This document shows positions 4,550-7,500 of a DNA stretch of 25,632 nt, piece after piece; position 1 is the first letter of the stretch, and every line of letters starts with the position of its first letter. This DNA is from a virus. Under the pieces are notes generated by a model. The model saw nothing but the letters and a program-made list of their open reading frames with translations, was not told the DNA's origin and did no database searches. The stretch is from UHGV virus genome UHGV-0369746. One strand, 5' to 3'. Made by a program: the position numbers and the translations under genes.

Positions 4550-7500
4550 TCAGCTGATACTGATACCTGCTGTGGATTTCTTCATCACCACAACCAGCAG
4601 ATCGCTGATACTGGTTGTTGGTGTCCAGTTATTCGCTCCTGATGAAGATACGGTGAATGTCAGTGTCAGCGTCCCCTGTCCGGCAGGCATATCTATAACT
4701 GAGGAAAAAACGCCCTGAGCATCCGTCGTGGACTGATTAAAAATCTCCTGACCATTGCGGGTCACTCTTAACCGGCAGGTTGAATACCAGTATGACTGTT
4801 GGTTATTACTGTTGAAATTCTCATGCTTACCACCGCGGAATAACACTGGCGGTATCATGACCTGCCGGTCAAATTTCTGATCATCACTGATTCTTACCGT
4901 GATGGTGCCACTGGCATAACTGTTCGTGCGGGGGAAAGACTTGCTGACCGTTTTGACAATATCGCCTTCAATCTGGTTGGCTGACAGTTTCCCCTTAATC
5001 TGACAGTTCTCATTAATCGTGACGTTGTTGAGCGTCCCTGAGTTCGCATTCACACTGCCACTGATATCCGCATTTTTAGCGGTCAGCTTTCCGTCTGATG
5101 TCAGGGAAAATACCGGAGGACTGCCACCGCTGGTAATGGTGGGTGCCGTCAGGCGTTTCAGGAACACGTCGTTCATGAATATCTGGTTGCCCTGCGCCAC
5201 AAACATCGGCGTTTCATTCCCGTTTGCCGGGTCAATAAACGCGATACGGTTAGCGGCAACCAGAAACTGGCTCAGTTTGCCTTCCTCCGTGTCCTCCATA
5301 CTGAGGCCAATACCCGCGACATAATGTTTGCCGTCTTTGGTCTGCTCAATTTTGACAGCCCACATGGCATTCCATTTATCGTTGGCATCCTTCCACTCTT
5401 TCGAAAACTCATCCAGTCTGCTGGCGTTATCCTCCGTCAGATCGACTTTTTCCAGCAGCTCTTTACCGAGATGGGATTCGGTTATCTTGCCTTTGAAAAA
5501 ATCCAGGTAACCTTCCGCATCATCGCTCGCCCGACCGACGGACTCCACGAATGCCGATTTGCCAACGGTGTTCACACTGCGGATATAAAAGTAATAATCA
5601 TGGCCCGGTTTGATATTGATACTGGCGGCTATCCAGTACAGCCCCGTGCCAAGGTAGCGGGCTGTGGTTTCAACCTGCCTGATATCGGTAATCCGCGTTT
5701 CCGAGAACCAGAACTCAAACTGTACCGTCGGATCATAAACCGCAAGATGCGGCGTGGCGGTTATCTGAAAATAGCCCGGCGTCAGCTCAATCCGCGACGG
5801 CGCTGCCGGTGCGGCAATCCGGAACGATACCGATGCCGGATCGCCCTGCTGTCCCCACGCATTTACCGCCCGGACCGTCAGCGTGTAACGCCCCAGCGCC
5901 AGTTGCCTGAAGCGGTATGTGGTTTCCGTCGTCCGGGCCGTGCTGACCAGCCGCTCACTGCCGTCATCCGCTGTTACGGTCAGACGGAGCAGGAAGCTCA
6001 CGCCCTTCACCACCTTCGGCGTGTCCCAGCGCGCCAGCACCTGATACTCCCCGCTGTCTGCGGTGACTTCGGCGGTCAGGTGCTGCACCGCTGGCGGCGT
6101 GACACCATTCACCGTGCCGCTCTGGTCGCCGTCAAAGTGCGCCCCGTTATCCACGATGGCCTCTTTTTCCGGTACATGCTGCACGGCAGTGATGGCATAC
6201 GTGCCGTCATCGTTCTCACGGATACTCACACAGCGGAACAGGCGCTGGCGCAACGTCGGCAACTTCAGCCCCCACACGCTGTATTCTGCAACGCCGTCAG
6301 GAACACGGCTCACTTTTACCTTCACGCCGTCGGTGACGGACTGGACCTCCACGCTGACCGGATTGCCACTTCCGTCAACCAGGCTTATCAGCGTGGTACC
6401 GGAGGATGGCAGCGTGATTTCACGGTCGAGCGTCAGCGTCCGGGTCTGGCTGTTCACCGCCAGCACGCGCCCGCCGATGCTGATCCCCGCATAGTCATCA
6501 TCGCAGATTTCAATAACATCACCCGGCACATGGCGAAGCCCTTCGGCACCCACGCTGAAATCCACGGTCTGCGTCTCCAGCAGCTCCGTTTTAATCAGCC
6601 ACAGCCCGGCGCGGTGTGCCTGCCCCCGGCTGGTACAGCCAAAGGCATCCATCTTCGTGACGTTACGACCGTAACGGAGAATGGCCTGCGTGTCCTCCAC
6701 AAGCTCTGTCGCCGTCTCCCAGCCGTTATCCGGGTCAATCCAGTTCACCTCAACGGCATTATGGCGGTCCTTGAGGGCGCTGAAGCTGTAGCGGAACGGC
6801 GCGCCATCATCCGGCATCACCACATTACTGCGGTTATAGGTCCACACCTTATCCGACGGCCGGTCCTGCACGAACGTCAGCGTCTGCCCGTTCCATACCG
6901 GCATACAGCGCATCGCCGAGCAGAAATCGCTGAGAACATCCCACGCCTTACGCTGTGTGGTCAGCCAGGCATTACAGGTGATGCGCGGCTCCGTGCCGCC
7001 AAAGCCGTCCGGCACTGACTGGTCGCAGTACTGGCCGATGACATACAGCGCCCATTTATCCACATCCGCCGCACCAAGACGTTTCCCCATGCCGTAGCGC
7101 GGATGGGTCAGCATATCCCACAGACACCAGGCCATGTTGTTGCTGTATGCCGGTTTAAACGTTCCGTCCCAGATACCGCTGTATTGCCGCGTCTGCGGGT
7201 TATAATTCGACGGCACCTGCAGAATACGCCCGCGCAGATGATAATTACGGCTCACCTGCTGGCTGCCGAACTGCTCCGAGTCCACCTGCACGCCGACCAG
7301 TGCCGTGTTCGGGTAGCACTGTTTCACATCGATAATTTCGGTGTATGACGACCAGAGCGTTTTGTTCTGCAGCTGGTCTGTGGTGCTGTCCGGCGTCATC
7401 CTGCGCATCCGGATATTAAACGGGCGCGGCGGCAGGTTATCCACCACCACCGAGGCCAGATACTGTGAAGTGGTTTTACCCTTAATGGTGATGTCTTTTT

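Follow-up and report, generated by a model that had tools for sequence, protein, structure and literature searches.

The window, that is, the whole stretch of 25,632 nucleotides of UHGV virus genome UHGV-0369746 that was analysed, carries a complete lambda-type morphogenesis arm from Nu1 through tfa. All of its open reading frames (ORFs) are near lambda length, a few being slightly longer, and its DNA is 95–97% identical to that of lambda, many Lambdavirus-like phages and E. coli prophages. It represents the structural part of a prophage of the lambda family. Lysis genes lie beyond Nu1 and cos (23400..25632), so the late operon and the packaging genes are contiguous across cos, an arrangement found in an integrated prophage or a permuted record. 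Gene J, encoding the tip attachment or central tail fibre protein, is placed within a tail module of the order H-M-L-K-I-J-lom-stf-tfa, with which both ORF order and ORF sizes agree, and the region is collinear with the annotation of lambda and PhiR26_1. A phmmer search against the PDB matched lambda tip attachment protein J (8iyk_J) over J residues 1–1131 with 2316 bits, and Pfam recognised FNIII-A_GpJ, Phage-tail_3, Ig_J, Ig_J_second, Phage_Tail_Tip and Ig_GpJ_C, the six domains being ordered as in gpJ and each scoring above its own cut-off. Homology, domain order and gene position place the protein in the family of lambda-type tip attachment protein J. The features of the locus are listed in the table.

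Table. Coordinates of gene J, its parts and the neighbouring features in the window (RBD, receptor-binding domain)
Feature	Position	Strand	Remarks
Gene J, tip attachment / central tail fibre protein	4550..7948	minus	intact ORF, 3399 nt, 1132 aa
Lambda-like J body, residues 1 to ~970 (hub domains, FNIII domains, helical shaft, beta-prism fibre)	5040..7948	minus	97.1% aa and ~95% nt identity to lambda J
Conserved linker directly preceding the domain, probable crossover zone	5040..5095	minus	56 nt, zero mismatches to lambda
Exchanged receptor-binding cassette of the A8/OmpC type, J residues ~971–1132 and stop codon	4550..5039	minus	40–60% nt and 44% aa identity to lambda
Ig-like RBD proper, Pfam Ig_GpJ_C (PF12421), residues 1008–1132	4553..4927	minus	124.3 bits, E = 4.8e-36, cut-off 26.2
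Terminator-like hairpin and T-run between J and lom	4513..4532	minus	pattern scan; immediately beyond the right cassette edge
lom, Ail_Lom (PF06316)	3884..4483	minus	199 aa; 45% identity to lambda Lom (206 aa)
stf, side tail fibre gene	796..3825	minus	intact ORF, ~1007 aa
DUF3950 gene	23664..23897	plus	
DUF1398/YbcV-like gene	23939..24364	plus	
Rz	24856..25335	minus	lysis gene beyond Nu1/cos
Rz1	24897..25103	minus	embedded in Rz
Endolysin-like ORF, end only	25320..25493	minus	putative

The lambdoid prophages of E. coli genomes are mostly cryptic, the structural arm alone is visible in the window, and the close relative PhiR29_2 has its J annotated in two pieces, all of which would suit a defective prophage whose J allele is a relic without a current role in adsorption. 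That the prophage is defective is nevertheless improbable, given that J is an uninterrupted ORF, that the ORFs between Nu1 and tfa, both included, are all there and of near lambda length, and that the identical receptor-binding domain occurs in phages isolated as viable (2H10, Chlobot, Turner, PhiR70_1 and PhiR30_1).

Over residues 1–970, J shares 942 of 970 amino acids with lambda gpJ (reference J02459), and the 28 differences in this body include those at residues 943, 946 and 951 just above the domain. Over residues 971–1132, in contrast, only 74 of 167 aligned columns are identical (44%), the first amino-acid change of the divergent block being S974N. Both proteins are 1132 aa long because the three indels in the block (−4, +5 and −1) cancel, the inserted stretch reading NSNNQ(Q). 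The DNA gives the same picture, with 128 mismatches in 2909 columns upstream of J nucleotide 2910 and 242 in 505 columns downstream of it (Fisher p = 8e-131). In bins of 100 nt, identity to lambda is 87–100% until J nucleotide 2900 and 68%, 44%, 52%, 53% and 56% in the bins past it; at the junction itself it drops from ~95% to ~50% over about 15 nt. The sequence-only reading, which had described a protein close to lambda gpJ over most of its length, of the same length and with a substantially different C-terminus, was therefore right on all three counts, and the C-terminal peptide that it quoted is present in the translation as given. It had placed the divergent block at 4550–5010; the block exists, but the pairwise alignment with lambda J set the breakpoint at window position ~5039, making it ~30 bases longer. 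The exchanged domain keeps the lambda RBD fold family (PF12421), and in an alignment of six RBD classes the framework residues are unchanged, in agreement with retention of the fold.

The identity of the domain emerged from comparison with the PDB, in which the last 181 residues of J (952–1132) showed zero differences from the chain 'A8 gpJ 713' (9wca_J/9wcb). Upstream of residue 952 this chain follows lambda (N943, A946, P951) and not the window, the J of which differs from it by N943S, A946V, P951S and 10 more substitutions between residues 713 and 942; the chain is therefore a lambda chimera carrying exactly the domain of the window. Entry 9wcb also holds three chains of 'Outer membrane porin C', which were found by phmmer with an E. 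coli OmpC query that scored 772 bits against 2j1n_A (K-12 OmpC). A literature search for a paper describing 9wca/9wcb found none, and the phrase 'A8 gpJ' was met only in Brödel et al. (Nature 2024; PMC11338833), who fused the C-terminal parts of natural gpJ variants to lambda gpJ for the use of OmpC, not LamB. The shared name and the chimeric make-up suggest that the PDB chain is the A8 chimera of that study. Its J resembles that of the window in having a lambda-type body below which residues 952–1132 are identical, and differs in being an engineered fusion onto authentic lambda gpJ, whereas the J of the window is a natural recombinant.

In MG1655 ΔlamB ΔompC complemented with MG1655 ompC, A8 reached 95% delivery (MOI 84) compared with 1.9% for wild-type lambda (MOI 135), and over 23 ompC alleles supplied to a ΔlamB ΔompC host its delivery ranged from >95% down to 7% (allele G40, MOI 226), with the OmpC alleles G40, G56 and G67 being used weakly (PMC11338833). 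The domain thus functions in the absence of LamB, with an activity governed by the OmpC present; the weak alleles mean that 'OmpC' alone is an insufficient description of the host range. The receptor of A8 is OmpC, both by these genetics and by the deposited entry containing the two proteins (9wcb). By its identity over the whole segment in which it differs from lambda, the J of the window is assigned to the A8-type RBD allele, predicted to bind OmpC, and its native phage probably uses OmpC and not LamB. The sequence-only reading had predicted a different outer membrane receptor, and this is supported, as the domain is identical to the RBD of A8, which is LamB-independent and ompC-allele-dependent. 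The phage would adsorb irreversibly to the trimeric porin OmpC through the J trimer, and OmpC binding would trigger opening of the tail and ejection of the DNA by a lambda-type relay from RBD to fibre to hub, a relay proposed here with OmpC as the trigger because J above the domain is 97% lambda. In lambda, the trimeric Ig-like RBD enters the porin with four loops at its lower end; the RBDs move apart, and this rearrangement is passed up the beta-prism fibre and opens the hub (Ge & Wang; PMC11101478).

Receptor use is known from a chimera in which the side fibre of P2 accompanies a lambda body (PMC11338833), the efficiency of A8 varies strongly with the OmpC allele, and a few mutations let lambda J use OmpF (PMC11101478); the native phage might thus, even with a swapped domain, use a receptor other than OmpC or need a second one, such as OmpF or LamB as co-receptor. 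We consider this very unlikely, as the entire segment differing from lambda is identical to A8, as A8 works in ΔlamB hosts and depends on the ompC allele supplied, and as A8 gpJ and OmpC were deposited together in 9wcb. A search of the literature for measured receptors of the PV340xxx 'PhiR' and mEp lambdoid phages carrying the domain of the window returned nothing relevant.

How the gene came by an A8-type domain can be read from its junctions. Mismatches between J and lambda are sporadic down to position 5096, none occur from 5095 to 5040, and they are dense from 5039/5028. Compared with the Stx1a phage, mismatches are dense down to 5039, after which just two (4964 and 4580) remain until the stop codon. 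The left junction at 5039–5040 therefore appears in two opposite kinds of comparison, lambda and PhiR26_1 being like the J of the window upstream of it and unlike downstream, whereas in the Stx1a phage, Lys8385Vzw and YYZ-2008 the upstream part is unlike and the downstream part differs at only 1–2 positions. Since the linker residues are identical in all six aligned RBD classes, the linker lends itself naturally to homologous recombination. On the right edge, homology to PhiR26_1 restarts at the J stop codon which, together with the left junction, delimits an exchanged unit of ~490 bp.

The body and the domain of J also have different relatives, as became clear when J was extracted from phages sharing either of them with the window, the domain being taken as the last 160 residues. 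The J proteins of Stx1a phage Stx1_131719, Lys8385Vzw and YYZ-2008 have bodies of only 66%, 69% and 69% amino-acid identity to that of the window, and last 160 residues of 100%, 100% and 98.8%, respectively. For lambda and PhiR26_1 the relation is the reverse, with bodies of 97% and 98% and last 160 residues of 44–45%. At the nucleotide level the cassette is 98–100% identical to that of phages whose J bodies reach just 66–69% amino-acid identity. Window J is therefore a natural recombinant, with a near-lambda body to about codon 970 and a different RBD allele for the last ~160 codons, and the cassette swap of the receptor-binding domain claimed from the sequence alone is borne out by the abrupt step in identity, the shared left junction and the incongruence of body and domain. 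Divergence of the C-terminus in place, by point mutation under diversifying selection and without exchange of a segment, might be suggested by the clustering of lambda host-range mutations in the C-terminal region of J (cited in PMC11101478) and by the homology that the two domains retain (44% identity, same Pfam domain), yet it is hardly credible given the steepness of the step and the three indels, and the presence of an identical block on unrelated backbones excludes a gradual process. The exchange of the segment probably took place by homologous recombination, the crossovers lying in the conserved linker on the left and, on the right, at the conserved J end or in the sequence that immediately follows. 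As a whole, the best explanation is that J is a natural recombinant with an A8-type domain and that the phage adsorbs via OmpC, to which we give a probability of about 90%. The gene cleanly illustrates domain-level mosaicism with a fixed junction.

The last 160 J residues were also used as a tblastn query against 50,697 phage records. This search matched 243 records that fall into discrete identity classes, the class of the window being the A8 type. It comprises 44 records at ≥98% identity (among them Stx1a, Stx2a and Stx2c phages, 2H10, Chlobot, Turner, PhiR70_1, YYZ-2008 and CP-1639), and in 18 phage records the RBD is 100% identical in amino-acid sequence. PhiR29_2, isolated on E. coli C and reported viable, has an RBD 99.4% the same as that of the window and its J at 4290..7686; the annotation of this J as two overlapping coding sequences suggests a frameshift or a sequencing error. 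The other classes are those of phage 21 (82% identity to the RBD of the window), BP-4795 (79%), one Stx2a group (62%), phage 434 and PhiR26_1 (45%) and lambda (44%).

The first three of these are graded relatives, which differ from the RBD of the window in regions aligning with the indel-bearing stretches. The window, phage 21, BP-4795 and the Stx2a phage have almost the same last ~30 residues (~1103–1132, window 4553..4642), whereas the rest of the domain in these phages is just 62–82% identical; lambda and 434 differ from the window in these residues. Mosaicism thus appears to reach inside the RBD as well, with a conserved end of ~30 residues on otherwise divergent domains. Lambda gpJ (PDB 8iyk, 8xcj) has the same length, domain architecture and PF12421 RBD family as the J of the window, but its RBD binds LamB, and with 44% identity and three indels between them the RBD of the window is not of this LamB-binding type. 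In the modelling of Ge & Wang, the lambda RBD clashes with an OmpC loop (PMC11101478). Phage 434, a classical lambdoid phage whose central tail fibre is reported to use OmpC (PMC11101478), shares the linker and the RBD framework with the window; its RBD nevertheless belongs to a different class, and at 44.9% identity the RBD of the window is not of the 434 type either. OmpC use therefore appears in at least two distinct RBD classes. The RBD of PhiR26_1 looks, by eye, close to that of 434.

The frequency of the two alleles in E. coli was surveyed in 5426 complete genomes, with the 486-bp block of the window and the equivalent RBD DNA of lambda (the latter by megablast) as queries. The block of the window was matched over ≥80% of its length in 2417 of the 5426 genomes, ~1520 records matching it at ≥95% identity. 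The lambda block was found in only 98 genomes (96 at the ≥80% length threshold), a set separate from that of the window, the matches listed being laboratory K-12, B and DE3 strains. The RBD allele that appears 'divergent' here is thus the common one in nature and the LamB-type of lambda is the outlier; LamB specificity, as known from lambda, is a rare allele among E. coli prophages. A broader and more tentative proposal, which we regard as rather doubtful, is that the A8/OmpC-type is the default receptor module of natural E. coli lambda-family prophages and that OmpC serves both reversible and irreversible adsorption in the present phage. If this were true, the spread of lambdoid prophages would depend chiefly on the diversity of ompC alleles. 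The RBD module itself is already known, having been characterised genetically and structurally and exploited for engineered DNA delivery, so the finding is not new. For annotation, the prophage is to be predicted as OmpC-using, not LamB-using; it would consequently differ from lambda in its behaviour on mutants in lamB or the mal regulon, and ompC alleles would govern the range of its hosts.

Downstream of J, divergence from lambda runs through most of lom, and DNA homology restarts near window position 4011. The lom gene of the window is 96–98% identical to those of 2H10, PhiR26_1 and Stx phages. A larger cassette comprising lom and the RBD was considered and rejected, because PhiR26_1 combines the lom of the window (98.5%) with a different RBD (44%); lom is thus a mosaic block separate from the RBD of J. 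At the site equivalent to the terminator-like hairpin between J and lom, the records of phage 434 and phage 21 carry an annotated terminator. A second terminator-like hairpin with a T-run lies directly after lom (3836..3857, minus strand), and in the interval 3700..5100 four terminator-like sites were seen, as against 1.1 expected from shuffled sequences.

The stf gene of the window is intact, whereas that of lambda PaPa is split into orf-401 and orf-314. Translation probably starts from the ATG at 3819 and yields MAVKISG. The N-terminus of the protein is 85% identical to orf-401, residues ~500–796 have no lambda counterpart, and the collar and GxHxH tip are 67% identical to orf-314, with indels. 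The tip resembles that of the Stf of Ur-lambda, which reportedly binds OmpC, and by this resemblance OmpC may be a common target of J and Stf.

A J peptide around F924 is reported to trigger HepS, a prophage defence protein (PMC13043305; 2026). If the numbering matches, F924 would correspond to window positions ~5177..5179 and fall in a 12-residue motif that is invariant in six J classes; this motif sits in the conserved J fibre, outside the swapped domain.
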